Positions 1,853 through 29,906 of a DNA stretch of 36,076 bases are shown here, piece after piece (the first letter of the stretch is position 1; every line of letters begins with the position of its first letter). The stretch is taken from the sequence record SRR20825006_1663; one strand, given 5' to 3'. The position numbers were made by a program, and so were the translations under genes. The notes under the pieces were generated by a model. That model was not told where the DNA came from, ran no database searches, and worked only from the letters and a program-made list of their open reading frames with translations.

Positions 1853-1926
1853 GGGTGAGACAAAAGGGTCGGTGGAGAAACGCGTCGAAGGATATCGACT
1901 GGGCCAAAACGAAACGGCACTAGGAA

Positions 1927-4941: not shown

Positions 4942-4998
4942 GGGGAAACTGAAATGAGGTGGGGATGGTGGATGAAAAGGTCCTTCGATCAAGTGGGC

Positions 4999-10291: not shown

Positions 10292-11668
10292 ATGCGTTTC
10301 CTCCTGATCTTTCTTGCTTGTCTTCCGCTGACCGTTTCAACTGCCAACGATTCGCGGCCGAACATCGTTTTGATCATGGCCGACGACATCGGCATCGAAG
10401 GGCTAGGATGTTACGGCGGGGTCTCTTACGACACGCCAGCCCTGGATCAGTTGGCCAGCGATGGAGTCCGGTTCACCCACGCGTATTCGCAACCGCTGTG
10501 CACCCCGACTCGTGTTCAACTGATGTCGGGCAAGTACAACCATCGCAACTGGAAGACGTTTGGAATCCTTGACCCGAATGTGAAGACCTTTGGTCATCGC
10601 ATGAAGGAAGAGGGCTACGCCACGGCGATCTTCGGCAAGTGGCAATTGCAATCTTACGACCCGCCGGGTTACCCCGGTGCCGATGAACGTCGCGGAACGG
10701 GCATGCATCCCAAGGATGCGGGCTTCGACCAGTATGCATTGTTCCATGCATTGCACACCGAAGACAAAGGCTCGCGTTACGCCAACCCAACCATGCTGGA
10801 AGGCGAAGCAGGGCAGGGCGGTGAGCTGAAAACTTACCCCGGACAGTTTGGAGAAGACATCTGGGTCAAGAAGACGATCGACTTCCTCAAACGGGATCGC
10901 AATGAACCCGCCTTCGTTTACTACCCCGTGGCGTTGCCGCACTGGCCGTTTGTCTCAACGCCAATCAGCGACGACTGGGATCCATCCCAACCGGTCGTGG
11001 AGCAACTGAAGTATTTCAAAGACATGGTCGAGTACATGGACGTTGCGGTTGGGAATCTGATTCAGGGGCTGCAGTCAAATGGTTTGCGAGAAAACACGGT
11101 CGTTATCTTTTACGGTGACAACGGCACTCATCTGAAAGTCGTCTCCGAACTCTCCGATGGACGTTCGATCCAAGGAGGAAAAGGCCTGACCAAACAGACC
11201 GGCATCCATGTCCCCTTGATCGTTTCGTGGCCTGGGCATATCCAGCCCAATGTGAGCGACAAACTGATCGACGCCTCCGATTTTTATCCGACGTTGGTTG
11301 AACTGGCAGGCGGCAAAGTGGCGGAAGACCCAACCATGGACGGAGTCAGCTTCGCGCCGGACTTGTTTGGTAAGCAGGGCCAGGAAAAAGATTCCTTGTT
11401 CTTTTGGTACGACCCTCGTCCCGGCGAAGACAAATCGCAGTTCACTCGCGAAGTCTTCGCACTCAATCGGACTCACAAGTACTTTCGCGACGGCCGTCTG
11501 TTTCGTTTGACAGATCGTCCACTAGAAGAAATCGCGATCGACCGAGACCAAGCCACCGCCGAAGACAAAGCTGCGATGAAAGAACTGCAGCAGCGGATCG
11601 CCGATGCGATGGCGGGAGTCGACGAACCACCTTTGCTCGATGCGACCGGTCAACCGATCTCAAACTGA
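10292..11668 (+). CDS. Sulfatase (arylsulfatase-like S1), secreted
   Basis: RPNIVLIMADD, CTPTRVQLMSG, GKWQL, GDNGT, GIHVPLIVSWPG. Confidence 0.93.
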   Translation: MRFLLIFLACLPLTVSTANDSRPNIVLIMADDIGIEGLGCYGGVSYDTPALDQLASDGVRFTHAYSQPLCTPTRVQLMSGKYNHRNWKTFGILDPNVKTFGHRMKEEGYATAIFGKWQLQSYDPPGYPGADERRGTGMHPKDAGFDQYALFHALHTEDKGSRYANPTMLEGEAGQGGELKTYPGQFGEDIWVKKTIDFLKRDRNEPAFVYYPVALPHWPFVSTPISDDWDPSQPVVEQLKYFKDMVEYMDVAVGNLIQGLQSNGLRENTVVIFYGDNGTHLKVVSELSDGRSIQGGKGLTKQTGIHVPLIVSWPGHIQPNVSDKLIDASDFYPTLVELAGGKVAEDPTMDGVSFAPDLFGKQGQEKDSLFFWYDPRPGEDKSQFTREVFALNRTHKYFRDGRLFRLTDRPLEEIAIDRDQATAEDKAAMKELQQRIADAMAGVDEPPLLDATGQPISN

Positions 11669-11737: not shown

Positions 11738-12562
11738 TCAAGTGACGCGGTGGTTCGCCCGAAACTTTCTGGGGGAACAACCACACGCCTTTCGAAACAC
11801 TTCGTTGAACCGGCTCAGACTTTGAAACCCTGATGCCAAGCTGACATCGAGCACCGATCGATTGGTCGTGACAAGCAACCGCTGGGCTTCCGACAAGCGA
11901 TGCTGAGTGATGAAGCTGGTAATCGAGATACCGAACGTCTTTCGAAACAAAGTCATGGCATAGTTCGGATGCAGGTCGACCGCATTGGTGATCGTCTCGG
12001 AAGTCAGTGGCTGATGAAAATGGCGAGCGATGTAGCACGCCAACTGATCGGCGCTGGACAAGTCCTCCATCGGCTCCCCTGTTCCACCAATGGACTTGTC
12101 TTGAGCAAAACGGAGCAGACGAGCCTGTATCTCAAGCTGTGCGGCACGAGCGAGTGCGGGGTCCTGGCTCGCCAAATCAGACTCCCATCTTTGAAAAGAC
12201 GCTGAGTCCCGCTCGTCCTGAACGGAGCTGATCAACACCTCGCCCTGCAGCGTTCGGTTCACGATATCAGCGTCGATCCCCGATCGCATGAATTCGTTCA
12301 GTGGCAGTGTCACCACAAAGTAAGGATCGTCCCCGTCAAACTCGACGATCTGATGAGGAACGGCTGCCCAAAACAAACCCATCTGCCCTGCATGAATGGT
12401 GTCCCGGTGTCCGCCCACCAAGTACGTCAGCGACCCGGACGCAAGGAAATTTACTTCGATTTCGCTGTGGCGATCGGCACGCGGCATCGCCACAGGCGTC
12501 CACCTTTCACAGGTGAATCCGTAAGGAGCGAACTCGGGACGCGTCGTATCAAACTGCTTCAT
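11738..12562 (-). CDS. AraC family transcriptional regulator (MelR-like, cupin + HTH)
   Basis: HSEIEVN cupin, FWAAVPHQ, LHPNYAMTLFRK, GFQSLSRFNEVFRK..GCSPR; ORF open to 12595. Confidence 0.93.
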   Translation of the reverse strand: MKQFDTTRPEFAPYGFTCERWTPVAMPRADRHSEIEVNFLASGSLTYLVGGHRDTIHAGQMGLFWAAVPHQIVEFDGDDPYFVVTLPLNEFMRSGIDADIVNRTLQGEVLISSVQDERDSASFQRWESDLASQDPALARAAQLEIQARLLRFAQDKSIGGTGEPMEDLSSADQLACYIARHFHQPLTSETITNAVDLHPNYAMTLFRKTFGISITSFITQHRLSEAQRLLVTTNRSVLDVSLASGFQSLSRFNEVFRKACGCSPRKFRANHRVT

Positions 12563-12730
12563 CGACCTTAGAATTCCGTTACTTATCCGCTGCAAACGAG
12601 AAGACTCTCGGAAGAACGAAGCTTAGTCTAATCCCATTAGGTACGACCAAGCAGTACGAACAGCCTGTCAAATTGCGGCTGCTGCGGCAGCAACTTCGTT
12701 GCTCAACAAACTCGTTTTTGAACGCCCCAC

Positions 12731-14314
12731 ATGATTCAACTATCTCGAAAAGCATCTCTCGCCTGCCTCTCGGTTCTGTTGATGTTCGCGATGGATGCTT
12801 CCCTCCCAGCGAACACGGCGGGTTCCGAGATTGAATTTGGTGGCGATGCAACAGGTCAGGCAGCAGACGGCAAAACGGCCTCACCCAAGACTCAACCATC
12901 GGGAACCAATCGCACCACAACCGTCGCTCTCGGCGTGCCGAAGCAGTCAAAAGCGAAGAAGAAACCACGGGTGCTGGTCACCAGCGATGGCGAGATCGAC
13001 GACCAGTGTTCGCTGGTGCGGTTTCTACTTTACGCCAATGAGTGGGACATCGAAGGAATCATCACGTCGAGTTCCCAGTATCACGCCCACGGTCACAGAT
13101 GGCCTGGCGATGATTGGGTGCAACCATTCTTGGCGGCTTACTCAAAGATCTATCCAAACCTGGTCCAGCATGACCCGGAATACCCAACCACCGAGTTTCT
13201 TCAATCACGCACGCTGCTTGGCAACGTGCGAACAGAAGGTGAGATGGATGAAATCACGCCCGGATCGCAACACATCGTGAAGGTGTTGTTAGACGAAACG
13301 GACGACCGACCGATTTGGATTCAAGCCTGGGGCGGAACGAACACGATCGCTCGCGCCCTGAAAACGATCGAGTTGGACCATCCTGACAAAATGGAATCCG
13401 TGGCAAACAAGATTCGGTTCTTTTTCATCTGGGAACAAGACACCACGTACCAGTCCTACATTCGACCGCACTGGGGCAAGTACAACATTCCAACGATCAT
13501 CTCCGATCAGTTCATCGCGATCTTTTACCGCTGGAAGAAATACCTTCCCGCTGAGCAGCAGTCATTCCTGTCCGGCTCGTGGATGCAGCCCAACATTTTG
13601 AAAGACCACGGTCCTTTGTGCGCGTTGTACCCAGCTCACACGGGAGACGACAAAGGTTTCGACACTGGCGATTTTCGTTCCGAAGGTGACTCCCCCGCCT
13701 TCCTGCATACGATTCCGGTTGGACTTCGCAGCATGGAATCACCGGGCTGGGGCGGTTGGGGAGGCCGGTACGTCAAAGTCCGCGAGAACACTTGGTTGGA
13801 TCCCGTCGCGGATGCGAATTACCGCTATCCCGATGGTCGCTGGTACGGAAACTCAGCCTGGGGACGTTCGCGGCTTCGTGAGAACAGGCCAAACGATACG
13901 GAACTCACTCAGTACGTCAAACCCATTTGGCGATGGATGGAAGCGATGCAAAACGACTTTGCCTCCCGAGCAGATTGGTGCGTCAAGTCTTTTGCCGAAG
14001 CCAACCATCCGCCCATGGTCAAACTTGCGATGCCACTCGACTTGCAGGTTCAAGCCGGCAATGAAGTGAGTTTGAGTGCACATGGATCGAGTGATCCCGA
14101 CGGAGATCAACTGAGCTACCGTTGGTGGCACTACCAAGAAGCGGGCTCCTTCCCACACACCATCCAGATCCGTGATGCCGCCCAACAAGACGCCTCGTTC
14201 AGCGTGCCTGAGTCGGCTCGGCAAGGCGAAACCATTCATCTGATCTGTGAAATCACCGACAATGGGACGCCCGCACTGACTCGCTACCAACGCGTTGTCA
14301 TCCAAGTCAAATGA
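12731..14314 (+). CDS. DUF1593 (nucleoside hydrolase-like) protein with C-terminal PKD/REJ-like domain, secreted
   Basis: RVLVTSDGEIDD..SLVRFLLYANEWDIEG, WGGTNT, EGDSPAFL, WGGWGGRY, QNDFASRADW, ANHPP, SSDPDGD. Confidence 0.9.
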   Translation: MIQLSRKASLACLSVLLMFAMDASLPANTAGSEIEFGGDATGQAADGKTASPKTQPSGTNRTTTVALGVPKQSKAKKKPRVLVTSDGEIDDQCSLVRFLLYANEWDIEGIITSSSQYHAHGHRWPGDDWVQPFLAAYSKIYPNLVQHDPEYPTTEFLQSRTLLGNVRTEGEMDEITPGSQHIVKVLLDETDDRPIWIQAWGGTNTIARALKTIELDHPDKMESVANKIRFFFIWEQDTTYQSYIRPHWGKYNIPTIISDQFIAIFYRWKKYLPAEQQSFLSGSWMQPNILKDHGPLCALYPAHTGDDKGFDTGDFRSEGDSPAFLHTIPVGLRSMESPGWGGWGGRYVKVRENTWLDPVADANYRYPDGRWYGNSAWGRSRLRENRPNDTELTQYVKPIWRWMEAMQNDFASRADWCVKSFAEANHPPMVKLAMPLDLQVQAGNEVSLSAHGSSDPDGDQLSYRWWHYQEAGSFPHTIQIRDAAQQDASFSVPESARQGETIHLICEITDNGTPALTRYQRVVIQVK

Positions 14315-14403
14315 CGAAGCCGCCGTTTGCTCATCGCGAAAAACGGCGGTGATCTTTCCTACCGAAGACCGCCACCTCCCCACACTTCATCAAGTCCCCA
14401 TCC

Positions 14404-15771
14404 ATGACTCGTCCTTTCCTCAATGTGATCGCCATCGTTGGCATCCTGTTCATCGCCGCGGATGCTTCCGCACAGAAACCTTTGGCCTTTCCGACCGCAG
14501 AAGGATACGGAAAGTACACGACGGGCGGTCGCGGTGGCCAAGTGTTCGAAGTGACCAACCTCAACGATTCCGGTGAAGGCAGCCTGCGGGCCGCGGTGGA
14601 GGCGAAAGGACCGCGAACAGTCGTCTTCCGAGTGTCCGGAACCATCAAGCTGAACAGCGACCTGCGAATCAAAAATCCGAACATCACCATCGCTGGCCAA
14701 ACCGCCCCTGGAGACGGAATCTGCCTCCGAGGTTACCCGCTGATGATCAGCGCTGACGAAGTGATCATCCGATACATCCGCGTCCGATTCGGCGATGAAT
14801 CGGGGAAAGACGCCGACGCGATCTCGGCCAGGTACGTCAAGAACTTGATCCTCGATCATGTGTCGGCCAGTTGGAGCGTTGACGAAACGATGTCCATCTA
14901 CCACTGCGAAAACGTCACGGTCCAGTGGTGCATGATCACAGAGAGTTTGTTCGACTCCAACCATTCCAAAAGCAACCACGGTTTCGGCGGCATTTGGGGA
15001 TCCAACCACAGCACTTACCACCACAACCTGATCGCACATCATTCCAGTCGCAACCCTCGGTTCGCATCCGGATGCGGCAACACGGATTATCGCAACAACG
15101 TGGTGTACAACTGGGGCTATCGGAGTTGCTATGGAGGCGAAAAAAGACAGAACGATAAGTTCAACTTCACCAACATCAACATGGTGGCCAACTACTACAA
15201 ACCCGGCCCGGCGACGGATCCTGCCAGGGCAGCAGAACTGGCCGAACCGTCGTCTCGAGGCCCCGACGACAAAGGTCATTGGTATGTCGCCGAAAACGTG
15301 ATCGAGGGCAGTCCTTCGGTCTCAGCGGACAACTGGAGCGGTGTTCGCGGCAGCAACTTCATCCAACTTGACCAGCCCTGGGAAGCGATGCCAATCAACC
15401 AACAAACCGCTGAAGAAGCATTCGAGGCCGTTCTTCAGCATGCAGGAGCGTCCTGGCCCAAACGCGATCCGATCGATACGCGGATCATTCAAGAAGTTCG
15501 TGATGGAACGGCAACCTACGAAGGCGTCTACAAAACCAAGAAACGCGTCAGCAGTGACACTCAAATCACGGGCATCATTGATTCGCAACAGGACGTCGGC
15601 GGCTGGCCTGAACTCAAAAACGCAACTGCGGCTCCCGATACGGACCACGACGGCATCCCCAATGCATGGGAAGCGGAGCATGGCATGGACCCGAACGATG
15701 CCAGCGACGGAAACCAAACCGGCAACGACGGATACACCATGTTGGAACAATACATCAACAGCATCCCGTAA
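14404..15771 (+). CDS. Pectate lyase (PL1, AFPxAEG type), secreted
   Basis: LAFPTAEGYG.YTTGGRGG, VTNLNDSGEGSLR, TIAGQTAPGDGI, DH.SASWSVDE, SRNPRF, DTDHDGIPNAWE. Confidence 0.92.
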   Translation: MTRPFLNVIAIVGILFIAADASAQKPLAFPTAEGYGKYTTGGRGGQVFEVTNLNDSGEGSLRAAVEAKGPRTVVFRVSGTIKLNSDLRIKNPNITIAGQTAPGDGICLRGYPLMISADEVIIRYIRVRFGDESGKDADAISARYVKNLILDHVSASWSVDETMSIYHCENVTVQWCMITESLFDSNHSKSNHGFGGIWGSNHSTYHHNLIAHHSSRNPRFASGCGNTDYRNNVVYNWGYRSCYGGEKRQNDKFNFTNINMVANYYKPGPATDPARAAELAEPSSRGPDDKGHWYVAENVIEGSPSVSADNWSGVRGSNFIQLDQPWEAMPINQQTAEEAFEAVLQHAGASWPKRDPIDTRIIQEVRDGTATYEGVYKTKKRVSSDTQITGIIDSQQDVGGWPELKNATAAPDTDHDGIPNAWEAEHGMDPNDASDGNQTGNDGYTMLEQYINSIP

Positions 15772-15786
15772 ACGCTTCCAACCAGC

Positions 15787-17859
15787 ATGCTTGTGACGCA
15801 TTCATTCTACCTCGCCAACGCCGTTGGCATCGGACAACGCATCATGCGAATCGCTTGCAACATCCTTGCAATCCACGTTGGCATCTGTCTGTGCGTCTGC
15901 AATGCCAACGCTCAGCCGACCGCGTCTCCTCCTTTTCGCTCTGTTGAACCAGTCGCGGTTGGGGACGTGAAATGGACCGACGGTTTCTGGGCCCAATGCC
16001 TGGAGACTTGTCGTGAAAAGACGATCCCAGCGATGTGGGAGATCATGCGTGGCACCCAGTACAAGCCTTATCTGGAACATTTCCGCATCGCGGCCGGGTT
16101 GGCAGAAGGCAGGTACCGCGGGGCGTCGTTCAACGACGGTGACTTCTACAAGTGGATGGAGGCAGTTTGCTTGCTTCAAGCCGTCGACAAGGATCATGTC
16201 TGGGACCAACGACTCAATGAAATCATCAGGGTCATTGGCAAAGCACAACGAAGCGATGGTTACCTCCACACACCTGTCCTGATCGCAAACCGAAATGGCG
16301 ATGACAGTGTCCAACCATTTGGCGATCGCTTCAACTTCGAGATGTACAACATGGGGCACCTGATGACCGCGGCATGCGTCCACCATCAGGTGACCGGCAA
16401 GGACAGCTTGCTCCGCATCGCACAACGCGCCGCTGACTTTCTCGACGATGCCTACCGCAATCCAACGCCTGAACAAGCGGGACATGCGATCTGCCCATCC
16501 CACTACATGGCATTGCTCGATCTGTATCGCACCACCGGAGAAGCCCGTTACTTGGATCTCGCGAAGCGACTGGTCAAAATGCGTGACCTGACGGTCGACG
16601 GGGGAGACGACAACCAAGATCGCATGCCGTTCACGCAACAAACCGAAGCGGTCGGCCACGCGGTGCGAGCCACCTATCTCTACGCGGGAATCGCTGACCT
16701 CTACGCGGAAACCGGCGACGATGCCTTGTGGTCGTCTCTGGAAAAGATCTGGCAGAACGTGGTCCACCAAAAGATGTACATCACGGGCGGCTGTGGTGCC
16801 CTGCATGATGGTGCTTCTCCTGATGGATCCAAGAACCAGCGAGAAATCACTCGCGTCCACCAAGCCTTCGGCCGCAACTACCAACTCCCCAACACAACGG
16901 CACACAACGAAACCTGTGCGAACATCGGCAACGTGCTTTGGAATTGGCGGATGTTTCTTGCCAACGGCGAATCGAAACACATCGATGTCTTGGAACTTGC
17001 ACTCTACAACTCCGTTCTGTCGGGCGTCGACCTCGACGGCACAAACTTCTTCTACACCAATCCACTTCGGCAATCTGACACGGCACCAGTTGCACTGCGA
17101 TGGGGCGGAGGACGAAAGCCGTTCGTGACATCGTTCTGTTGCCCACCCAACCTGGCGAGGACGATTGCTGGTGTTGGCCAATACGCCTACGAAAAATCAG
17201 ACGACACGGTCTGGGTCAACTTGTATGGCAGCAACACGCTGGACACCCACCTCACCAACGGCGGCCGCGTTCGCATCGAACAAACCACCGACTACCCATG
17301 GGATGGTCGCATTCAAATCACCATCGCAGAGTGCCAAAACCAACCGGTGTGCTTGAAGCTGCGAATTCCTGGCTGGGCGACGACGACCACTTTGAAAATC
17401 GACGGTGTTCCAACCAAAACAACCATCAAGTCGGGCAGCTATGTTTCACTAAAACGAGCCTGGAGTCCGGGCACAGTCATCGAACTGGACTTCGCCATGC
17501 CCGCACGCCTCATCGAGTCGCATCCGCTCGTGGAAGAGACCCGCAATCACGTGGCAGTCAAACGCGGCCCAATCGTTTACTGCCTGGAATCTGTCGACCT
17601 GCCAGACGACACCTCGCTAGCGGATCTTCGAGTCCCGGAAGACGTGGATCTGACCCCACGTTTTGAGCCGGAACTTCTCGACGGAGTCACGGTTCTCGAA
17701 GGCGAGCTGAGTTTGAAGCAGAGCGGCCAATGGCGAAACCAGCTTTACCGCGAATTCAATCCGACACCGTCTTCCCCCGTTGCAGTCCAGCTCATTCCCT
17801 ATTTCGCTTGGGCCAATCGCGGGAAATCTGAAATGTCGGTGTGGCTACCGCTCGATTGA
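15787..17859 (+). CDS. GH127 glycoside hydrolase, aceric-acid-hydrolase-like variant
   Basis: DGDFYKWMEA, YNMGHL, GHAVRATYLY, HNETCA, FCCPPN, VKRGPIVYCLE, IPYFAWANRG; Gln at acid/base position; alternative ATG 15844. Confidence 0.9.
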   Translation: MLVTHSFYLANAVGIGQRIMRIACNILAIHVGICLCVCNANAQPTASPPFRSVEPVAVGDVKWTDGFWAQCLETCREKTIPAMWEIMRGTQYKPYLEHFRIAAGLAEGRYRGASFNDGDFYKWMEAVCLLQAVDKDHVWDQRLNEIIRVIGKAQRSDGYLHTPVLIANRNGDDSVQPFGDRFNFEMYNMGHLMTAACVHHQVTGKDSLLRIAQRAADFLDDAYRNPTPEQAGHAICPSHYMALLDLYRTTGEARYLDLAKRLVKMRDLTVDGGDDNQDRMPFTQQTEAVGHAVRATYLYAGIADLYAETGDDALWSSLEKIWQNVVHQKMYITGGCGALHDGASPDGSKNQREITRVHQAFGRNYQLPNTTAHNETCANIGNVLWNWRMFLANGESKHIDVLELALYNSVLSGVDLDGTNFFYTNPLRQSDTAPVALRWGGGRKPFVTSFCCPPNLARTIAGVGQYAYEKSDDTVWVNLYGSNTLDTHLTNGGRVRIEQTTDYPWDGRIQITIAECQNQPVCLKLRIPGWATTTTLKIDGVPTKTTIKSGSYVSLKRAWSPGTVIELDFAMPARLIESHPLVEETRNHVAVKRGPIVYCLESVDLPDDTSLADLRVPEDVDLTPRFEPELLDGVTVLEGELSLKQSGQWRNQLYREFNPTPSSPVAVQLIPYFAWANRGKSEMSVWLPLD

Positions 17860-17891
17860 AACTGCCCAGTGCCTCCAATTCCTATCACTCG

Positions 17892-18902
17892 ATGGCGAAC
17901 CTCAGCATGAATGACCAACCGTCCAATCCGCTATTTGCCGGACTTCTATCAATTTTCTTCGCCGCCTTCGTGTGGACGTCGCTCGCTTCCGCCGAGGAAA
18001 GTGACGCTCCCATCGGATGGGCCTCCGTCAATGGCCGTGGAGTTGAAACGACCACTGGAGGGGCAAACGGTGACATCGTGACAGCCCGCACCGCAGAGAA
18101 GTTGGCCGAGTACGCGTCCAGCCCCGAGCCACTGACCATTTTGATCGAAGGAACCATCACCGGAGACGGTCAAATCAAGATCTCGTCCAACAAAACACTG
18201 CTTGGTTTGGGAGCATCCACATCGCTTAAGAACATCGAACTGAATATGAGCGGTGTTTCGAACATCATCATTCGCAACCTCCACATCTCGGACGCTCGCG
18301 ATGCGATCGCGCTGCGTCGAACCCACCATGTGTGGGTCGATCACTGTAACCTTTCGGAATGTGGTGATGGCTTGCTCGACATCACCCACCAGTCCGACTT
18401 CGTGACCGTTTCCTGGACTCGGTTTTCGAAGCATCACAAAACGATGTTGATCAACAGCGGCACCAGCCAACCGGAAGATTCCGGCTACCTCAACACAACG
18501 ATCCATCATTGCTGGTTCGATGGTTCCGACACGCGCAACCCGCGAGTGGGCTACGGGAAGGTTCACGTGTTCAATTGCCTTTACACAAAAAATGACTACG
18601 GGATTGGATTGCACTCGCAGTGCTTGGTACTCGCCGAACGGAATCACTTTGATCAAGTGAAGCATCCGATCAAACAGATGTATCGCCCCGATCCGACCGA
18701 CATCCATCATGGATTTTGCGAGTCGGTGGAGAATGTTTTTCAGGATTGTCGAGGAGCACAGGACGACGAGGGAAAGAGCTTTCCCGCGAAAGAATTTTAC
18801 GAATACGAATCCAAGATGGATGACGTGGCCCGTGTACCGGAGATTGTCCAATCCAACGCGGGCCCCCAAGAACACATCGGGAGAACAGCGTCGCGACAGT
18901 GA
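17892..18902 (+). CDS. Pectate lyase (PL1, classical Pec_lyase_C type)
   Basis: TTGG, SNKTLLG, NIIIRNL, HVWVDH, DGLLDI, VTVSW, RNPRVGYG.VHVFN; start uncertain (17892 or 17907). Confidence 0.9.
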   Translation: MANLSMNDQPSNPLFAGLLSIFFAAFVWTSLASAEESDAPIGWASVNGRGVETTTGGANGDIVTARTAEKLAEYASSPEPLTILIEGTITGDGQIKISSNKTLLGLGASTSLKNIELNMSGVSNIIIRNLHISDARDAIALRRTHHVWVDHCNLSECGDGLLDITHQSDFVTVSWTRFSKHHKTMLINSGTSQPEDSGYLNTTIHHCWFDGSDTRNPRVGYGKVHVFNCLYTKNDYGIGLHSQCLVLAERNHFDQVKHPIKQMYRPDPTDIHHGFCESVENVFQDCRGAQDDEGKSFPAKEFYEYESKMDDVARVPEIVQSNAGPQEHIGRTASRQ

Positions 18903-18957
18903 CGAATGGATGAGAGTGAATTCTCGCGTGAAAGACCTCGGGCACATCGGAATGGGA

Positions 18958-18963
18958 TACAAT
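18958..18963 (+). promoter_or_regulatory. Candidate internal -10 element (TACAAT) for the HPS-like/dehydrogenase/isomerase genes
   Basis: tacaat about 55 bp upstream of ATG 19016 followed by a C-rich leader; no clear -35. Confidence 0.3.
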
Positions 18964-19015
18964 TCGGGCCTCCCGCCTGAACCCCACCATCCCTCCCTCC
19001 CCACGAGGCCGCGAC

Positions 19016-19708
19016 ATGCGTCCAATCGTCCAAATTTCGTTGGACCTGACCAACATTGATGAAGCCCTTGAGACCGCCGAACTGGCCATGCGGGCTGGCG
19101 TGGATTGGTTGGAAGCGGGAACTCCGCTGATTCTTGCCGAAGGCTTGCACGGCGTCCGAGAACTTCGCGCGACGTTTCCCAAAACGCCAATCGTCGCCGA
19201 CCTCAAAACGATGGACGGCGGGTACCTCGAAGCCGAGATGATGGCCAACGCCGGCGCGACCCACGTCGTGGTGATGGCTCGAGCTCATGAAGAAACGATC
19301 CGCTGCGTCGTTAGAGCTGGAGCTGACTTTGGTTGCCAAGTCATGGGCGACAACATGGTCAGCGAAGACATGGTCGCCGGTGCCAAACGACTGGAAGACC
19401 TGGGGTGCGGTTTCGTGATTCACCACATCGGCTACGACGAACGTCGCGGCATTGCAGATCGCGGCGATCGCATGCCCAGTCCGCTCGATCAACTGCGTGA
19501 AGTCGTGGAAGCGGTCGAGGTACCCGTTCAAGCCGTCGGTGGCTTGTCGATCGAACAAGCCATCGAGTGTCCCAAGTACGGCGCCCCTTTGGTGGTTTTG
19601 GGCGCACCTCTGACGATCGACGCCGATGCGTTTCGCACCGCCGATGGTGACCTGGAAGCGTCGCTGCGAATGATCTGCGACGCCGTGCACGCCCAAGATG
19701 TCGCCTAA
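19016..19708 (+). CDS. HPS/KGPDC family (OMP decarboxylase superfamily) protein, 3-hexulose-6-phosphate synthase-like
   Basis: QISLD, LEAGTPLI, IVADLKTMDGG (DxKxxD), HIGYD, AVGGL; substrate not certain. Confidence 0.88.
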   Translation: MRPIVQISLDLTNIDEALETAELAMRAGVDWLEAGTPLILAEGLHGVRELRATFPKTPIVADLKTMDGGYLEAEMMANAGATHVVVMARAHEETIRCVVRAGADFGCQVMGDNMVSEDMVAGAKRLEDLGCGFVIHHIGYDERRGIADRGDRMPSPLDQLREVVEAVEVPVQAVGGLSIEQAIECPKYGAPLVVLGAPLTIDADAFRTADGDLEASLRMICDAVHAQDVA

Positions 19709-19724
19709 CAGCGACAACAAGCTC

Positions 19725-19797
19725 TCTGTCATAACCCGCAGCGTTAGCAAGGGACGGAGTTGCCCCGAACTCCACGCGACTGCCCTCGGATTATCAG
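19725..19797. repeat. Degenerate REP-like palindromic element
   Basis: ataacccgcagcgttagcaaggga left arm, inner hairpin ggagtt-gccccg-aactcc, shortened right arm ccctcggattatcaga; resembles planctomycete intergenic palindromes as recalled. Confidence 0.5.
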
Positions 19798-19841
19798 ACG
19801 TTCCGACTCAACCTTTCTATCGTCAATCAACAGGCAATCCC

Positions 19842-20870
19842 ATGCAATCCGCTGCGGTGGTGAACTACGCTCCCGAACCAGGCTCCGTCGAAATTCGCGA
19901 AATTGATCGTCCGGAGATCGGCTCGCAAGATGTGCTGTTGGAAGTGTCACACGTGGGAGTCTGCGGCAGCGATCTTCATCAGTGGACCGCACACCATTCT
20001 TGGCCGGTGAACTACCCCGTGGTGCTGGGACACGAGTTTGGCGGGCACATCGTGCAGCTTGGTAACGATGTCGAAGGTTGGAAAGAAGGCGACCGCGTGG
20101 TCAGCGAAACCGCCGCGATCATCGACTCAAACAATCCCATGACGCGGCGTGGTCTCTACAACCTGGACCCAACGCGAAAAGGTTTTGGCTACGGAGTCAA
20201 TGGTGCGATGACTCGCTATGTTCGCGTTCCGTCGCGAATTCTTCATGAGGTCCCTCATTCGCTCGCGTTTGAACACGCGTGCCTGACCGAACCCTGCTGC
20301 GTCGCTTACAACGCCGTCGTTCGCAATGCATGCATTGAGCCGGGTGATCGAGTCATCGTGATGGGGCCCGGGACCATTGGCATTTTATGCGCCGCCATGG
20401 CGCGGCTTTGTGGCGCCGAGGTGGCTTTGGTTGGACTGGAGTCCGATCGTCATCGTTTGAACATCGCGGAAGAGAACTACGGCTGCCAAGGCATCGTCGG
20501 TGATCCAACCGATTGGGCCAACCAACGCGACGGGCTGGGATGCGACGGCGTGATCGATGCCGCTGGATCCAGCGTCACGCTTGAAATTGCCATGCAAGTT
20601 GTCCGTCCTGCGGGATGGATCAGCAAAGTTGGCTGGGGTCCACAACCGCTCGGATACAACTTGGATCCGCTGGTCCAAAAGAACGTGACCTTGCAAGGAA
20701 GCTTCAGCCACAACTGGCCGATCTGGGAACGCGTGCTGGCATTGCTCACCAGCGGACAACTGAACGTTGCCCCGATCATCGGCGGCATCTGGCCAATCGA
20801 CCAATGGCAAACCGCCTTTGACAAAATGCATCGTGGCGAAGTCGTGAAATCGGTGCTCCAACCCATTTAA
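19842..20870 (+). CDS. Zn-dependent MDR dehydrogenase (sorbitol/threonine dehydrogenase-like)
   Basis: GVCGSDLH, VLGHEFGG, GDRVV, LTEP, GPGTIG; ATG 19842 preferred over 19698. Confidence 0.92.
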   Translation: MQSAAVVNYAPEPGSVEIREIDRPEIGSQDVLLEVSHVGVCGSDLHQWTAHHSWPVNYPVVLGHEFGGHIVQLGNDVEGWKEGDRVVSETAAIIDSNNPMTRRGLYNLDPTRKGFGYGVNGAMTRYVRVPSRILHEVPHSLAFEHACLTEPCCVAYNAVVRNACIEPGDRVIVMGPGTIGILCAAMARLCGAEVALVGLESDRHRLNIAEENYGCQGIVGDPTDWANQRDGLGCDGVIDAAGSSVTLEIAMQVVRPAGWISKVGWGPQPLGYNLDPLVQKNVTLQGSFSHNWPIWERVLALLTSGQLNVAPIIGGIWPIDQWQTAFDKMHRGEVVKSVLQPI

Positions 20871-20890
20871 TCCCAATTGAACTGTTCAAA

Positions 20891-20920
20891 CGAATTAGCC
20901 GACGGCCGTTAGGCCCGGTT
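20891..20920. repeat. Degenerate half REP-like unit
   Basis: cgaattagccgacggccgttaggcccggtt in the intergenic gap; resembles a Rhodopirellula-type ATTAGCCG..GGCGTTAGCC.CGGTT repeat arm as recalled, partner arm absent. Confidence 0.4.
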
Positions 20921-20954
20921 CTCACATTGCTTCATAGAAAACAGCAGTCCAACC

Positions 20955-21839
20955 ATGCCTCGACTGGCCGCGTTTCCCAAAGCCTACATGACCGCTCTTT
21001 GCAAAGATGGCTCGATGAAGCTGTCCGAGTGGTTTGAGCTCGCCTCGACCCTGGACGTTCAAGGACTGGAGTTCTATGCCGGCTTCCTCGAACTGGATAG
21101 CCAAAGCAATTGGCCCTTGCTACGCCAACAAGTTGCAGACCGTGGGATGGTCATCCCCATGCTTTGTTGCTCACCCGATTTCACCCACCCCGACCAAACG
21201 TTCCGCGACGCTCAAATCCAACGACAACTGCGTTGGATTGAGATGACGGAGACGCTTGGTGGCAGCTACTGCCGAGTGCTCAGCGGACAAAGGCGTCCCG
21301 AATTGACCATCGAGGAAGGCATTCGATTGGCCGCCGACTGCATCACTCAGTGCTTGCCTCATGCCGCCGATCGAGGCATCACGCTGATTCTCGAAAACCA
21401 CTACAAGGATGACTTCTGGGAATACCCCGAGTTTGCCCAATCCATGGATGTGTTTTGCGATCTGGTGTCCTCGATCGATCACCCGAACTTCGGCGTCAAC
21501 TACGACCCCAGCAACGCTTTCTTGGCCGGCGATGATCCTTTGGAATTGCTCCGCCGCGTGTCGGACCGCGTTGTGACCATGCACGCCAGCGATCGCTTTC
21601 TAGTCGAAGGCACGCTCGAGGACCTGCGGGCTGAAGAAAGCGGATCGGTCGGTTACGCTCAACGACTCCGTCATGGTGAAATCGGCAAAGGTCTGAATGA
21701 TTACGATGCGATCTTTCGCGAACTAAAATCCAAAGGGTTTGATTCTTGGATCAGCATCGAAGACGGCGTGGATGGCATCGACCAACTCCGCCGCAGTGCC
21801 GATTTCTTACGCCAAAAGATTGCTGAACATTGGAATTGA
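20955..21839 (+). CDS. Sugar phosphate isomerase/epimerase (xylose isomerase-like TIM barrel, AP_endonuc_2)
   Basis: GLEFY, RVLSG, LILENH, VNYDPSN, TMHASD, IGKGLNDY, ISIED metal-binding pattern. Confidence 0.9.
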   Translation: MPRLAAFPKAYMTALCKDGSMKLSEWFELASTLDVQGLEFYAGFLELDSQSNWPLLRQQVADRGMVIPMLCCSPDFTHPDQTFRDAQIQRQLRWIEMTETLGGSYCRVLSGQRRPELTIEEGIRLAADCITQCLPHAADRGITLILENHYKDDFWEYPEFAQSMDVFCDLVSSIDHPNFGVNYDPSNAFLAGDDPLELLRRVSDRVVTMHASDRFLVEGTLEDLRAEESGSVGYAQRLRHGEIGKGLNDYDAIFRELKSKGFDSWISIEDGVDGIDQLRRSADFLRQKIAEHWN

Positions 21840-21903
21840 TCCGACCGGCCCATCCCACCTTCACTCCATTCAATCATTGCCCCACCTCGAAAGAACGCCG
21901 CTC

Positions 21904-22866
21904 ATGTCTCGTCGCCGGCCAGCCAACATTGACGCAAACATCCTCAAACAGCCCGCTCGGTTCGGTTTCACAATCGCTGCTTGTTTGCTTTTCATCTGCC
22001 TTTCATCGAAGCCGCTCTGTGCAGACGAATCTGACATTGAATTGCTGGCCGAATCTCGCATCGCTGTCGTTGGAGACAGCATCACACAAGCCGGTCACTA
22101 CGTCTCGTTTCTGTCGTATCAGTTGCAAAAGAGTTACCCCAATCGAACCTTCGACGTTTACCCATTGGGATTGTCCAGTGAAACTGTTTCGGGACTAAGC
22201 GAAGATGGTCACGCGGGAGGCCGATTCCCGCGACCATGTTTGTTCGAGCGATTCGACCGATTGCTTAGCAAAGTCAAACCGGACGTTCTGATCGCATGTT
22301 ACGGAATGAACGATGGAATCTACCAACCGCTGGAAAAAAGTCGTTTCGCGGCATTCCAAAACGGCATTCAACACATGATCGCTCAAGCCCAACAGGCCGG
22401 AGTGAAAAAGATCTATCTGGTCACGCCGCCGATCTACGACTACCAACCCACAGACGGTTCCTTCAACTACGAATCGGTGCTTAGCGAATACGCTCGCTGG
22501 GAAACCAAACTGAAGCTCCCCAATGTCAAAGTCATCGACTTGCACACCGCGATGAGAGACGCCCGCAAGAAGCGCGACCAACCGTTTTCCAACGACAAAG
22601 TGCACCCCAATGAGGAAGGGCATTGGCTGATGGCACAAACCATCGCGTCCGCATTGGGAGCAAGCGAAACGAGCATGACATTGGCGGAAGCCAAAGCGGA
22701 TCCCGTGTTCGCGTCGATCGATGCGATCCGCAACCTGCGTTGGAAAGCCTGGATGAACCACATCGGCTACACGCGAGAAAAGACCTATCCACCACAACCC
22801 CTCGGCGGGTCAGAAGCTCTCGTTGCGGAACAGCAGGAAGCGATCAAGACACTTCTTGCCCGGTAA
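21904..22866 (+). CDS. SGNH/GDSL hydrolase (putative carbohydrate acetylesterase), secreted
   Basis: VGDSIT, GLSSETVSG, YGMND, DKVHPNEEGH; signal peptide-like segment. Confidence 0.9.
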   Translation: MSRRRPANIDANILKQPARFGFTIAACLLFICLSSKPLCADESDIELLAESRIAVVGDSITQAGHYVSFLSYQLQKSYPNRTFDVYPLGLSSETVSGLSEDGHAGGRFPRPCLFERFDRLLSKVKPDVLIACYGMNDGIYQPLEKSRFAAFQNGIQHMIAQAQQAGVKKIYLVTPPIYDYQPTDGSFNYESVLSEYARWETKLKLPNVKVIDLHTAMRDARKKRDQPFSNDKVHPNEEGHWLMAQTIASALGASETSMTLAEAKADPVFASIDAIRNLRWKAWMNHIGYTREKTYPPQPLGGSEALVAEQQEAIKTLLAR

Positions 22867-22895
22867 GACATGCAATTTGCTCGGTAAGACATGCA
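22856..22895. repeat. Tandem direct repeat, 19 bp x2, 21-bp period
   Basis: ttgcccggtaagacatgca (22856-22874) and ttgctcggtaagacatgca (22877-22895), 1 mismatch. Confidence 0.85.
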
Positions 22896-23173
22896 TGCGA
22901 AATAGCTACAAATCCTTCGTTTCGCCCAGTTCTCCAACTCAAGAAAGAACCTGAAAAGTTGATTCGAACGCCCCATGGGAGGGCCATCAGTCGATAGACT
23001 AGGGGAGCGTTGTCGATTTGTTTCCCTCCGGCTTTCGTTAAGGGCTGCGGATCGGCCACGCAGGCATGCGGTTGGCCAGCGTTCCAATGGCAAACGCGAG
23101 GCCTTCCGGCCCGTGTCCAGACGGCATGCTTCCCACCAACCAAGCCATCACCCGGGAAAAGACTCGCCAAGCA

Positions 23174-25646
<2,473 letters not shown>

Positions 25647-25657
<11 letters not shown>

Positions 25658-27104
25658 AACATCCGCCTCTTCCAACGGATTCTCACCACGAATTTCGTCG
25701 CGAAGAGAAATGCTGCTGCAATGCGGTGGTGGCTTCGGGTCGCTGGCATTGGCGGGATTGCTACAAGACACCGCGTCGGCCGGGCCCTCTACGGAAGCCC
25801 CCTCGCCGCTGGCATCTAAATTGGTCCATCATCCGGCCAAAGCCAAAAGCGTGATCTTCTTATTCATGGATGGCGGCCCCAGCCATCTGGACACGTTCGA
25901 TCCAAAACCTGAGCTGGAACGGTTGGCGGGCAAACCGATCCCTGAAAGTTTTGGCCGCGTGCTGACGGCCATGGGTGAATTTGATTCTCCAATCCTTCCC
26001 ACCCAACGAAAATGGGCTCAATACGGCGAAGGTGGCCTGTGGATCTCGGATTGGTTGCCACACACCGCGAAGATGGCGGACGAGTTGGCCGTCATTCGCT
26101 CATGCTGGACCAACGGCATCAACCATTCAGGCGGTATCTGCCAAATGAACACGGGCAGCCAGTTCGCTGGGCGTCCTTCGTTGGGTAGTTGGGTCACTTA
26201 TGGAATGGGGACCGAAAATGAAAACCTGCCCGCCTTTGTGGTCATGCAAGAAGGCAAGGGCAGGGTGATCAACGGAGCTCGCAATTGGGGTGCCGGCTTC
26301 ATGCCGGCGATCTATCAAGGCACCACGATGCAGCGTACAGGATCGCCATTTACAAACTTGGACCGCCCCGAGCACGTTGCTGGCCCCCAACAACGCGCTG
26401 CGCTCGATTTCTTGGCCGACCTGAATCAAGCACATGCCGCCGAACGATCCGACAACAGCGAATTGGAAGCCCGTATCCGTAGCTTCGAACTCGCATATCA
26501 AATGCAGTCTCATGCTCCGGATGCGGTGGATCTGTCACAGGAAACCGAGCAAACCAAATCGATGTACGGGCTCGATCAAAAGGAAACTGCCGACTACGGA
26601 CGACAGCTGCTAATGGCTCGGCGTTTAGTCGAACGCGGCGTCCGGTTCGTGCAGTGCTATCACGGCGCGGGAAGCAAGTGGGACGCGCATGCCAAAATCG
26701 AATCCAACCACACACGAATGTGCCGCGGAATGGACTTGCCCGTCGCAGGATTGATCCAAGACCTGAAGCAACGCGGTTTGCTCGATCAAACACTGATCGT
26801 GTGGGGTGGTGAGTTTGGACGGACACCGATGAGCGAGAAGGGTGACGGCCGCGACCACAATCCAACCGGTTTTTCAATGTGGATGGCGGGCGGTGGCGTG
26901 CAAGGTGGCCAGGCCTATGGCACGACCGACGATCTCGGCTTGCACGCCGTGGAAGATCGCTTGCATGTGCACGACATCCATTCCACGATCTTGCACTTGA
27001 TGGGCATCGATCATCGGAAGCTGATTTACTTGCACAAAGGCCGCCCCGAACGGATCGATCAAAACGAGGGCCGGGCTTACACAAAAATTGTGAAAGAGAC
27101 TTAA
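25647..27104 (+). CDS. DUF1501 domain protein (Tat-exported, sulfatase-like fold)
   Basis: SRREML Tat motif, AKAKSVIFLFMDGGPSHLDTFDPKP, ARRLVERGVRFVQ, WGGEFGRTP, GRDHNP; 11-bp overlap with the upstream gene. Confidence 0.94.
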
Positions 27105-27268: not shown

Positions 27269-27892
27269 CTACTTTGGGACGTCCACCAAAACGCCGCGCG
27301 GCCCAGCGTTCAAAATCGGTGTCGCACCCAGCGTCACTTGGCGTTCCCAATCGCTGTGAATGTGCCCGCAAACGGCGAAACGTGGCTTCTTCGTTAGGAT
27401 CGCATCGCGAATGCTCTGGCTGCCGCGAATTTTGCCGGCGCTGTCGTGATCGACGGTGTCCAGCGCCGGTGAATGCGTGATCAAAATCGCTCCCTCGGGA
27501 CACCCCGCCAGCATCTCGGTGGCTTGGTCTTCATCAAAGTCGTAGCTCCATGCACCAAACGGCGTCACCGGGATTCCGCCGCCCACGCCCCAAACAGGAA
27601 CGGTGCTGTTGTGCAGCTCGATCTCGCATCCTTCCCCGTGCAACACAATCGCGGATTGCCAATTCGCGGTCGCCTCTCGTAATTCGTCCGCCGTCTCGCC
27701 GTTGCCAGGAACCAACACCGTGGGCCGCGTGATCGATTGCAGAATATCCAACGTGTCAGCCAAACCTTCGTGCCGGTTGGCAAAGTCACCAGCACCGAGA
27801 ACCAAGTCCGCTTGATCGGCAAGTTCCACCAACCGCTTGGCGGCCTCCTGGTCGCGATGCAGGTCACTGAAGCAAAGAATTCGAATGGTCAT
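27269..27892 (-). CDS. Calcineurin-like metallophosphoesterase
   Basis: SDLH, AGD, VPGNGE, THSP, CGHIH, LNAG; ATGA overlap with the radical SAM stop. Confidence 0.9.
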   Translation of the reverse strand: MTIRILCFSDLHRDQEAAKRLVELADQADLVLGAGDFANRHEGLADTLDILQSITRPTVLVPGNGETADELREATANWQSAIVLHGEGCEIELHNSTVPVWGVGGGIPVTPFGAWSYDFDEDQATEMLAGCPEGAILITHSPALDTVDHDSAGKIRGSQSIRDAILTKKPRFAVCGHIHSDWERQVTLGATPILNAGPRGVLVDVPK

Positions 27893-29727
27893 GTCGCGTT
27901 CGCCATGTCGGTCAATTGGATGGTCGCTCGAGTTTGTTCTTTCTCAAGATACGTGCGTCCAAACTTCACATTGACGTGATCCCAAGGGAGTTTGTCCATC
28001 ATCTCGTACTTCTGATGAACCTGTTGATCAACATCGATCCCAGCGTCCTCGATCGCTTGCCACCAACGCTCTGAATCGAGGTGCTCAGTCCAACCATCCA
28101 TGCGGGCCCCGCGTTCCCAGGCCAGACGAATGGCTTTCCCGGTCCGCCGGTCACCGCGGCTGATCACGCCTTCCAGCAAACTCGTTTCGATGTCGTGACA
28201 CTTGATGTTCACGCTGCGGATTTTTCGACGCTTCCAGAGGTAGTCGTGGGCCCAGCGGAAATATTCGCGAGACTGCATCCCGTTCCATTGATACGGCGTG
28301 TGTGATTTCGGAACGAAGTTCGAAACGCTGGCCGTGACTCTCGCATACCGGCCGTTGACTTCTTTGCCAACCGTCGAAATCGTTTCTGCCAAGTCAACGA
28401 TGCCGTCCAAATCGACAGGTCGTTCACCAGGCAATCCGCACATGAAGTACAGCTTCACGCTTTCGAATCCATTTTGAAACGCTGCTCGGCAACCCTCGAT
28501 CAGATCGCTGTTCTTGATCTTCTTGCGGATCTGTTGCCGCATGTCATCACGAGCGACTTCGGGGGCCAACGTCAGTGATTTCCGCCGAGTGCTTCCGAGC
28601 AACTCCGGCAGCGTTCGCAGTTGATCGTTGACTCGCAAACTCGGCACACTGATGTTCACATCCAGCGGCACGAAGACTTCATGCAATCGCTTCACCAACT
28701 CAGCAAAGTGCGGGTAGTCACTGCTGGAAAGCGACAGGATGCTGATCTCGTTGAAGCCCGTGCTTCGATAGCTCTCCAGGGCCGCGTCAACAATCGTGTC
28801 AACTTCGCGAATTCGCAGCGGGCGTTTGATAACCGTGCTCTGACAGAACCGGCACAGGTGCGGGCAACCTCGCATGATCTCGATCGCGATTCGGTCGTGC
28901 ACGCAGTTGACGTACGGAACGATGGGATTCGTCGGCAACGGCATGCCATCCAAATCGCTGATCACGCTGGGTGCGATCGTTTCTGGCACGTCATCACGCG
29001 TTCGAACGATCGATCCGATGCGATTGTTGTCGGAGTATTGAGGCTCGTAAAATCGTGGCACATAGGCGAATGGCAATTGCTGAGCCACGCGAGCCAAAGC
29101 GTCTTCGCGTTGCTGGCGTCCTTCTTCGCCAGTCGCATAGCTTCCATCGGGCAACCGAACCTCTTCGCGAAGGCTCAGCCACAAATCGCAGATTTCAGGC
29201 AGCGCCGGTTCACCATCGCCAGTCACCATGACGTCGAAGACATCGGCCATCGGTTCTGGGTTTTGACAACACGGTCCGCCTGCGACCAACAACGGATCCG
29301 CCATCGTCCGATCGACTGCATCGAGCGGCAGACCGCCCAGATCGACCATCGTCAACACGTTGGGCGAGCTGATTTCATACTGCAGCGACAATCCGATGAC
29401 GTCGAACTCGCTGAGCGGCGTGAACGTTTCCAGCGTGTAAAGCGGCAAGTTGTGCTCCCGCAGCTTGGCTTCCATGTCCGGCCAAGGCATGAAGACTCGC
29501 TCAGCACACCAATCGTCTCGCCGATTGATCATCGAATACAGAACTTGCAACCCGTGATGGCTCATCCCGATCGTGTACGCATCAGGGAACCCAACGGCGA
29601 TTTTCCCGCGTAGTTTTCGATGGTCTTTGACGACGATGTTGCGTTCCCCGCCGACATACTGAGCCGGCGTTTGCACGTGAGGCAAAACACGAGATTCGAG
29701 TTTTCGTCGGAGTTCGTGATGAATCAT
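27889..29727 (-). CDS. TIGR03960-type B12-binding radical SAM protein
   Basis: PAQYVGGE.N, FPDAYTIGMSHHG, ERVF.PW.D, GGPC..NPEP, EIMRGCPHLCRFCQ (CxxxCxxC), KLYFMCGLP, FVPKSHTPYQW; ATG 29727 preferred. Confidence 0.92.
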   Translation of the reverse strand: MIHHELRRKLESRVLPHVQTPAQYVGGERNIVVKDHRKLRGKIAVGFPDAYTIGMSHHGLQVLYSMINRRDDWCAERVFMPWPDMEAKLREHNLPLYTLETFTPLSEFDVIGLSLQYEISSPNVLTMVDLGGLPLDAVDRTMADPLLVAGGPCCQNPEPMADVFDVMVTGDGEPALPEICDLWLSLREEVRLPDGSYATGEEGRQQREDALARVAQQLPFAYVPRFYEPQYSDNNRIGSIVRTRDDVPETIAPSVISDLDGMPLPTNPIVPYVNCVHDRIAIEIMRGCPHLCRFCQSTVIKRPLRIREVDTIVDAALESYRSTGFNEISILSLSSSDYPHFAELVKRLHEVFVPLDVNISVPSLRVNDQLRTLPELLGSTRRKSLTLAPEVARDDMRQQIRKKIKNSDLIEGCRAAFQNGFESVKLYFMCGLPGERPVDLDGIVDLAETISTVGKEVNGRYARVTASVSNFVPKSHTPYQWNGMQSREYFRWAHDYLWKRRKIRSVNIKCHDIETSLLEGVISRGDRRTGKAIRLAWERGARMDGWTEHLDSERWWQAIEDAGIDVDQQVHQKYEMMDKLPWDHVNVKFGRTYLEKEQTRATIQLTDMANAT

Positions 29728-29906
29728 AAAAAACTGGCACCAAAAATGGATCGAGTGGTCAAGTGACAACCGGACGTCCATTAAAGCGAATCCGGCCGCT
29801 CGAGTCATCCTCAGCCTCATTGGGGAATTGGCTGGGGTGAGATAAAACGGTTGATCAGAACGCTGAGCGGCGAGAACGCAGTCCAAATCAAACAGAGAAT
29901 CAAGCA

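Follow-up and report, generated by a model that had tools for sequence, protein, structure and literature searches.

The 36,076-nucleotide DNA stretch SRR20825006_1663 (the window) carries three adjacent genes on the plus strand, at 19016-21839, which encode a protein resembling 3-hexulose-6-phosphate synthase (HPS) and 3-keto-L-gulonate-6-phosphate decarboxylase (KGPDC), a Zn-dependent dehydrogenase and a xylose-isomerase-like TIM barrel. Comparison with related genomes showed that this trio is a functional unit, as seen in its conserved adjacency and in the phyletic coupling of its genes. It represents, in this stretch, a widespread and very strongly conserved cytoplasmic module, the fuller form of which comprises the HPS-like enzyme, the Zn-dehydrogenase, a short-chain dehydrogenase/reductase (SDR) and the TIM barrel, with or without an SMP-30 lactonase; there is about an even chance that this module breaks down sugars in the manner proposed below. 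An earlier reading of the window, the original prediction, had placed enzymes of these three families here, which was confirmed on the plus strand, and had taken them for a catabolic unit with beta-keto or C-C-cleavage chemistry acting on aceric acid. The unit is now established and chemistry of this general type is the most plausible kind, but aceric acid did not hold up as the substrate.

The enzyme families themselves are known; it is their combination and distribution that appear undescribed. A literature search, in which the sources were mostly represented by their titles and the beginnings of their abstracts, returned nothing on the gene set of the module or on the catabolism of aceric acid. 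A module of three to five genes without a characterised member, found in three phyla with proteins about 70-90% identical, is a good target for pathway discovery. It would also explain the annotation of an "orphan HPS without PHI" (PHI, 6-phospho-3-hexuloisomerase) in these polysaccharide degraders, and it may reveal a way by which central metabolism receives 3-keto sugars or C1 units derived from complex glycans.

Conservation and distribution of the module

The window originates from a Rhodopirellula-like planctomycete, and the relatives of its HPS-like protein at 96-99% identity bear Rhodopirellula names. The nearest genome compared (G001, a single contig of 7.1 Mb) was 96.9% identical to the window at the DNA level over 18 kb with the same gene order, and it stood in for the window's own genome in the genome-wide searches. 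In a scan of one genome per species, at least 588 of the 600 candidate stretches listed encoded a protein related to the HPS-like enzyme. A set of 103 related loci was made up of the best 80 of these (at least 588) stretches, five distant loci from Planctomycetota and 18 from Cytophagales. The best 80 came from Planctomycetota, Verrucomicrobiota and Bacteroidota, and their HPS-like proteins were 82-93% identical to that of the window.

The partner genes recurred in these loci. Of the 103 loci, 80 had the dehydrogenase together with the HPS-like gene, 48 had the TIM barrel, 37 the SDR, usually between the dehydrogenase and the TIM barrel, and 12 the SMP-30 lactonase. Many of the loci without partners were truncated where a contig ended; of the 49 first-set loci whose flanks were complete, 39 had the dehydrogenase, 21 the TIM barrel and 16 the SDR. 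The Cytophagales loci formed a nearly constant operon in the order HPS-ADH-SDR-TIM (ADH, alcohol dehydrogenase), with the HPS-like gene, the ADH and the TIM barrel each in 18/18 loci, the SDR in 16/18 and the lactonase in 8/18. The distant copies from Planctomycetota, at identities of 46-68%, retained the gene set in the order TIM-SDR-HPS-ADH.

The presence of the genes was also coupled across genomes. Among 43 Planctomycetota genomes, an orthologue of the TIM barrel occurred in all 23 that bear the HPS-like gene against 5 of the 20 that lack it, and in those five it was only 49-54% identical. For the dehydrogenase, the corresponding counts were 17/23 and 0/20. No close SDR orthologue was found in G001, where the best match reached 35% identity, and the window therefore holds the three-gene form of the module.

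The HPS-like protein was about 85% identical between phyla, and 49-60% of the codons for identical residues differed (window positions 19016-19696 against L068, L061, L011 and other loci), so that synonymous sites look close to saturation. This degree of protein identity in spite of the codon differences indicates strong purifying selection rather than a very recent transfer, and the constraint on such a small enzyme is unusually strong. The dehydrogenase (71-85% identity) and the TIM barrel (68-82%) showed a similar behaviour. A quick tree of the HPS-like proteins grouped the conserved clade mostly by phylum, with poor resolution. Open frames of 489-498 aa in distant genomes, which had looked like fusions of the HPS-like protein, were set aside as most likely over-extended frames in G+C-rich DNA; the neighbouring genes there are separate.

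The genomic context suggests that the module behaves as a sugar-catabolic unit. Six Algoriphagus-type loci had a LacI regulator and 24 verrucomicrobial loci one of the AraC type, and scattered loci carried GntP, SSF or gluP/fucP-like transporters. The best NCBIfam matches of the SDR, all below their cut-offs, included a generic oxidoreductase subfamily and the glucose, xylose and fucose 1-dehydrogenases. PF06439 genes lay within 3 kb of the module in 20 of the 103 loci, usually within about 130 bp, at positions that differed between Pirellulaceae and Verrucomicrobiaceae. Three PF06439 representatives were confirmed by a Pfam check, one of them marginally, and a fourth (L121) was not confirmed. 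A glycoside-3-dehydrogenase-like gene followed the TIM gene in L123 and L128, scoring 434 bits against a cut-off of 750. Two Cytophagales genomes carried a one-strand run of a GH140-like gene (PF13204, apiosidase-like), the HPS-like gene, ADH, SDR, TIM and a GH127-like gene (L119, 4873-12281; L120, 8316-15771). This closely spaced run is likely to be one operon, and it adjoins genes for an extracytoplasmic-function (ECF) sigma factor, a FecR anti-sigma factor and a SusC-like protein with an STN domain.

The three enzymes and a possible chain-shortening route

The core of the module is the HPS/KGPDC-like protein of 230 aa (19016-19708, plus strand), a member of the OMP-decarboxylase (OMPDC) suprafamily (Pfam OMPdecase/HUMPS PF00215, 74.6 bits). 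Enzymes of the HPS/KGPDC branch act on 3-hexulose-6-phosphate and 3-keto-L-gulonate-6-phosphate and break the C1-C2 bond via a metal-bound enediolate. The protein scored 136 bits on the HPS equivalog TIGR03128 (135 bits for the G001 copy), below the cut-off of 200, and it remained far below the cut-offs of the KGPDC models NF009831 (62.5 against 294 bits) and NF009832 (79.1 against 250 bits). Among solved chains, it was about 41% identical to the HPS 9lj9 by a by-eye count on the HMMER match line (138.6 bits), and E. coli KGPDC reached 50-56 bits. The residues E33, D62, K64, D67, D112 and H137 aligned with those of solved HPS and KGPDC chains and were invariant in 20 family members; E33, D62, K64, D67 and H137 correspond to the Mg2+ and catalytic residues of the HPS/KGPDC group, which are thus conserved. 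The GG and G-A-P-L loops were also invariant in the 20 members, and we take the G-G and G-x-x-L/I-T loops to be phosphate binders in this suprafamily.

We assume that E112, R139 and T169 are the positions that tell KGPDC from HPS. At the aligned positions the HPS-like protein has D112, Y140 and V174, as seen in the alignment to 3ieb and 1kv8-type chains and in the family alignment, so it does not carry the KGPDC residues. The protein thus resembles HPS (HxlA; TIGR03128; 9lj9, 3ajx, 3f4w) in fold, suprafamily, sequence identity, catalytic and Mg2+ residues and the residues at these positions. It differs from HPS in its sub-threshold model score, in a seven-residue insert after the HxGxDE motif, in the absence of a PHI partner from 33 of 35 genomes, and in having dehydrogenases and a TIM barrel as its constant partners.

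The second gene encodes a Zn-dependent medium-chain dehydrogenase of the polyol/threonine dehydrogenase type on the plus strand. Its open reading frame spans 19698-20870 (390 aa). The 48-codon upstream extension (19698-19841) overlaps the stop codon of the HPS-like gene and is matched by no orthologue, and since the orthologues elsewhere align from residue 49, translation probably begins at the ATG at 19842, which would make a protein of 342 aa (19842-20870). Both of its domains (PF08240 and PF00107) exceeded the Pfam gathering scores, at 79.1 against 23.5 bits and 56 against 31.8 bits. It reached no NCBIfam equivalog, with 172 of the 380 bits needed for threonine dehydrogenase (TDH) and 161 of the 450 bits for IolM. 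Its best solved relatives were TDH and sorbitol dehydrogenase.

The third gene (20955-21839, plus strand, 294 aa) encodes the TIM barrel, a putative metal-dependent isomerase or epimerase of ketoses or keto acids, with 141.6 bits on AP_endonuc_2 (PF01261) against a gathering score of 31.1. The Glu-Asp-His-Glu metal site is kept: E147, D184 and E269 were invariant and H210 nearly so. In a Foldseek search, the predicted model (pLDDT, the predicted local distance difference test, 90) had only generic family neighbours at identities of at most 19%, among them Art22 isomerase, ketose 3-epimerases, UlaE, IolE/IolI and a 3-keto-glucal hydratase. The model superposed on UlaE and the ketose 3-epimerases with template modelling (TM) scores of 0.73-0.78 at 13-17% identity, and other subfamilies were equally near. 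By sequence, UlaE and the ketose 3-epimerases of the PDB gave no match to the TIM barrel at E <= 1e-5.

With moderate confidence, we propose that the module shortens sugars oxidatively: one or more dehydrogenases would yield a sugar or sugar acid with a 3-keto group, from which the HPS/KGPDC-like enzyme would cleave C1, lost either as CO2 or as formaldehyde, with the TIM barrel serving as an isomerase. The proposal arises from the constant partners, which can make a keto group (Zn-dehydrogenase, SDR) or move or epimerise it (TIM barrel). We infer the order of the steps, the leaving group, the substrate and its phosphorylation state as follows. In some lineages only, an aldose would first be converted via the lactone to the acid by the SDR and the lactonase, and this aldose-to-aldonate entry is likely where both are present. 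This step is absent from the window, and an acid or a central sugar phosphate would therefore enter directly. The Zn-dehydrogenase, alone or with the TIM-barrel isomerase, would then create a 3-keto (beta-keto) sugar acid or a 3-ketose. The HPS/KGPDC-like enzyme would bind the 3-keto group through Mg2+ and break the C1-C2 bond via an enediolate; C1 would leave as CO2, as in KGPDC, or as formaldehyde, as in HPS, and the remaining ketose would be shorter by one carbon. Finally, the TIM barrel would act as an isomerase or epimerase on the shortened ketose, or on the 2-keto compound that precedes it, and so lead towards central metabolism. Aceric acid is not the specific substrate, and in Rhodopirellula the module is simply located within a run of pectin-related genes.

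Tentatively, the module may be a sugar pathway, so far undescribed, in which C1 is cleaved off by an HPS-type enzyme that operates in the absence of PHI. Such a pathway might be a variant of the ribulose monophosphate (RuMP) pathway in which the barrel converts 3-hexulose-6-phosphate, or a formaldehyde-lyase or decarboxylase route that shortens a 3-keto sugar made by dehydrogenases. If this were true, it might connect the pentose phosphate pool with periplasmic enzymes for 3-keto-glycosides or for debranching.

The proposed route has partial parallels among known systems. UlaD/SgbH is a 3-keto-L-gulonate-6-phosphate decarboxylase and UlaE/SgbU an L-xylulose-5-phosphate 3-epimerase, and in this system of ascorbate and L-xylulose use a C1-cleaving enzyme of the OMPDC suprafamily is likewise paired with an AP_endonuc_2 barrel, UlaE having a TM score of 0.75 to the model of our TIM barrel. 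However, the HPS-like protein scored only 62-79 bits on the KGPDC models, which demand 250-294, and lacks the assumed KGPDC residues E112, R139 and T169; identity of the barrel to UlaE was 16%, and there are no kinase, phosphotransferase system (PTS) or 4-epimerase genes nearby. The isomerase step of the tetronate and D-ribonate routes is presumably carried out by a TIM barrel of this kind. These routes (Ltn2D/Den2D-OtnI-OtnK-OtnC and Rib2D-OrnI) convert an acid sugar to a 2-oxo acid and a 3-oxo acid, which is decarboxylated to a shorter ketose (PMC13753588). They share with the proposed route the logic of a dehydrogenase, an isomerase and a decarboxylase. They differ from it in the families of the dehydrogenase and the decarboxylase; no DUF1537 kinase stood out among the partly annotated recurrent neighbours of the module, and the sole match of the hydroxypyruvate-isomerase type reached 20 bits.

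Oxidative 3-keto-glycoside pathways employ a glycoside 3-dehydrogenase of the GFO type, an AP_endonuc_2 lyase or hydratase and PF06439 proteins. They resemble the module in the PF06439 and glycoside-3-dehydrogenase-like genes beside it and in the 3-keto-glucal hydratase among the neighbours of the TIM model. But these pathways regenerate glucose and have no HPS/KGPDC-like enzyme, and no literature link between them and such an enzyme was found in the titles and partial texts searched. The window also has two genes for PF06439 "3-keto-disaccharide hydrolase" proteins on its minus strand (44-763 and 839-1930), beside a GFO/IDH/MocA oxidoreductase with a twin-arginine translocation (TAT) signal (1927-3363). 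Together these genes (44-3363), which lie 16 kb away from the trio, resemble a periplasmic set for 3-keto-glycosides.

Several observations weigh against the route proposed for the module. The residues D112, Y140 and V174 form an HPS pattern, which, judged from the alignments, would point to formaldehyde rather than CO2 as the group released and agrees with the formaldehyde-based alternative considered below. Neither a kinase nor a transporter was a constant neighbour of the module in the related loci, yet the phosphate-type G-G and G-x-x-L/I-T loops look retained. No close characterised relative of the TIM barrel was found by the PDB sequence search or by Foldseek. Furthermore, six genomes of family f59 (G067, G092, G155, G284, G299 and G329) have the HPS-like and TIM genes and lack a dehydrogenase orthologue at E <= 1e-60. 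Their HPS-like proteins are 60-77% identical to that of the window, and in G067 the HPS-like and TIM genes sit on different contigs. This arrangement may be a variant of the module; the annotation of recurrent neighbours was partial, and the f59-type loci L084 and L088 lay outside it.

Formaldehyde, apiose and aceric acid as alternatives

The main rival to chain shortening is a PHI-independent RuMP-type formaldehyde module, which we consider unlikely. The HPS-like enzyme would condense formaldehyde with ribulose-5-phosphate, the TIM barrel would replace 6-phospho-3-hexuloisomerase, and the cycle would be supplied or drained by the dehydrogenases. Methanol, or glycans that are methyl-esterified or O-methylated, would be the source of the formaldehyde. 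The original prediction had named formaldehyde handling as its own alternative, and this remains a live rival. The HPS-like protein is nearer to HPS than to KGPDC on solved chains (138.6 against 50-56 bits) as well as on the models (136 against 62-79 bits), and HPS-like residues occupy the positions that we assume to be KGPDC-specific. Barrels of the ketose 3-epimerase type, structural neighbours of the TIM model, use 2,3-enediol chemistry, which an isomerase of this kind would require, and the methylated pectin context also fits. Marine polysaccharide degraders reportedly use RuMP genes on formaldehyde from methoxy sugars (PMC9400963), which counts for the same alternative.

The search for PHI bears out the earlier claim that the window has neither PHI nor a sugar kinase, as no SIS/PHI or sugar-kinase domain was found among the 24 large open reading frames scanned. 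In G001, the best match to PHI (TIGR03127) reached 45.5 bits, where 160 are required. A PHI above the cut-off occurred in only two of 35 other module-bearing genomes, G246 and G389 of family f74, on contigs other than that of the module. Each of these two also has a second HPS-like paralogue on another contig (171-178 bits on TIGR03128), and a separate RuMP-type pair may coexist with the module there. The formaldehyde module would therefore need a substitute for PHI, which counts in favour of this alternative. Against it, the Zn-dehydrogenase, the SDR and the lactonase would be superfluous for detoxification, yet they are the most constant partners. The LacI and AraC regulators of the sugar type, the sugar transporters and glycosidases among the neighbours and the HPS model score below the curated cut-off also speak against it.

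It is improbable that the module serves a branched or furanosidic plant sugar such as apiose, with the HPS-like enzyme acting as a formaldehyde-lyase that removes the hydroxymethyl branch (for example, 2-oxo-apionate to 2-oxo-tetronate) and the TIM barrel isomerising the product. This idea draws on L119 and L120, where the HPS-like gene is immediately preceded on its strand by the PF13204 GH140-like gene and the TIM gene immediately followed by the GH127-like gene. An aldose-to-aldonate start would be in keeping with the SDR and the lactonase, and the known apiose routes, as summarised in one source, lack this enzyme set (PMC13753588). However, the GH140-like adjacency was seen in just two closely related loci of the 103. 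The geometry of an apiose route would also be unlike that of the HPS substrate, in which the anionic group would not stand next to the keto group as it would here. Among the recurrent neighbours, which were partly annotated, neither a tetronate kinase nor a decarboxylase was conspicuous.

The remaining alternative is the one that the original prediction had preferred, a dedicated route for aceric acid freed by the neighbouring GH127, in which isomerisation or oxidation would turn the sugar into a beta-keto acid, whose decarboxylation would leave a deoxypentulose. The GH127 gene (15787-17859, plus strand), which is context to the conserved module and lies outside it, was confirmed upstream of the trio as an aceric-type member: it scored 973.4 bits on the NCBIfam model NF049879 "aceric acid hydrolase" against a cut-off of 950, and the G001 copy scored 969.5 bits. 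We take GH127 proteins of the BT1003 type to be aceric acid hydrolases, following the name of the model. It lies 1.2 kb upstream of the trio on the same strand in both the window and G001, and the lack of an SDR and a lactonase in the window fits a substrate that is already an acid. No published route for aceric acid was found among the titles and abstract beginnings searched.

Co-occurrence of the trio with aceric-type GH127, which had been set beforehand as the test of this link, was rare. Of 401 Planctomycetota genomes, three (G001, G300 and G330) had a GH127 at or near the aceric cut-off (at least 945 bits) and 23 had the HPS-like gene, and only G001 had both. Of 401 Cytophagales genomes, 20 were above the aceric cut-off and 21 had the HPS-like gene; the overlap was two genomes (G519 and G800), where about one is expected by chance, and in these the two genes were 1.7 Mb apart or on different contigs. 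The overlap thus amounted to 1/23 and 2/21 of the module-bearing genomes, and 2/3 Planctomycetota and 18/20 Cytophagales genomes with aceric-type GH127 lacked the module. Most organisms able to release aceric acid are therefore without it, and the module is independent of aceric-type GH127.

The adjacency seen in the window was similarly restricted. None of the 103 related loci had a GH127 at the aceric cut-off, and an aceric-type GH127 beside the trio was found only in the window and G001, which makes the arrangement a juxtaposition specific to Rhodopirellula. GH127-family genes did adjoin the module in two further lineages, L068 and the near-identical pair L119/L120, and this can be counted for the aceric acid route; however, they scored only 427 and 93 bits against 950. 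By a rough estimate, adjacency to GH127-family genes in three lineages is more than expected by chance, and a looser link of the module to debranching enzymes of the furanosidase type is possible. A lineage-specific change of substrate is unlikely in view of orthologues 82-93% identical in genomes without aceric-type GH127, and aceric acid would offer no terminal anionic group to the retained phosphate-type loops. Because the trio occurs almost everywhere without aceric-type GH127, with the two uncoupled across the 802 genomes, it is not a dedicated aceric acid pathway, and we regard such a role as very improbable. Setting the idea aside avoids the mis-annotation of a very common gene set as a speciality of rhamnogalacturonan II (RG-II) degradation.

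Other genes of the window

The trio belongs to a plus-strand gene run (12731-27104) in the order Sde182-type protein, PelZ-like pectate lyase, GH127, PL1, HPS-like protein, Zn-dehydrogenase, TIM barrel and GDSL esterase. The Sde182-type protein (12731-14314, plus strand) is nucleoside-hydrolase-like with a C-terminal PKD-like domain (PF07632, 242 bits; PF21027, 111 bits). The PelZ-like pectate lyase (14404-15771, plus strand) scored 159.5 bits on NF041900, under the cut-off of 840, and had no Pfam match. The PL1 pectate lyase (17841-18902, plus strand; PF00544, 115.6 bits) lies between the GH127 and the trio, and its open reading frame shares 19 bases with that of the GH127 (17841-17859). Downstream of the trio, the open reading frame of the GDSL/SGNH esterase (21739-22866, plus strand; PF13472, 76 bits) overlaps the end of the TIM gene; it is matched from residue 110, and its true start is probably later than 21739.

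A gene for an AraC-family regulator (11738-12595, minus strand; PF12833 and PF00165) is divergent from this run and, from its position alone, is a possible regulator of the locus. A scan of the window for promoters and terminators gave sites no commoner than in shuffled sequence. The pectin-type genes are flanked by three sulfatase genes (3391-6480 and 10292-11668) and a GxDLY/SGNH esterase gene (6841-8043). The run ends with a gene for a PSCyt1/PSCyt2/PSD1 protein (863 aa) followed by one for a DUF1501 protein (485 aa), with overlapping ends (23066-27104); DUF1501 genes were close to the module in 9 of the best 80 related loci. Further downstream, a gene for a radical SAM protein with a Radical_SAM_N2 domain adjoins one for a metallophosphoesterase (27269-29907, minus strand), and an AddB-like PD-(D/E)XK nuclease is paired with a UvrD-type helicase at 30300-35977 on the plus strand.

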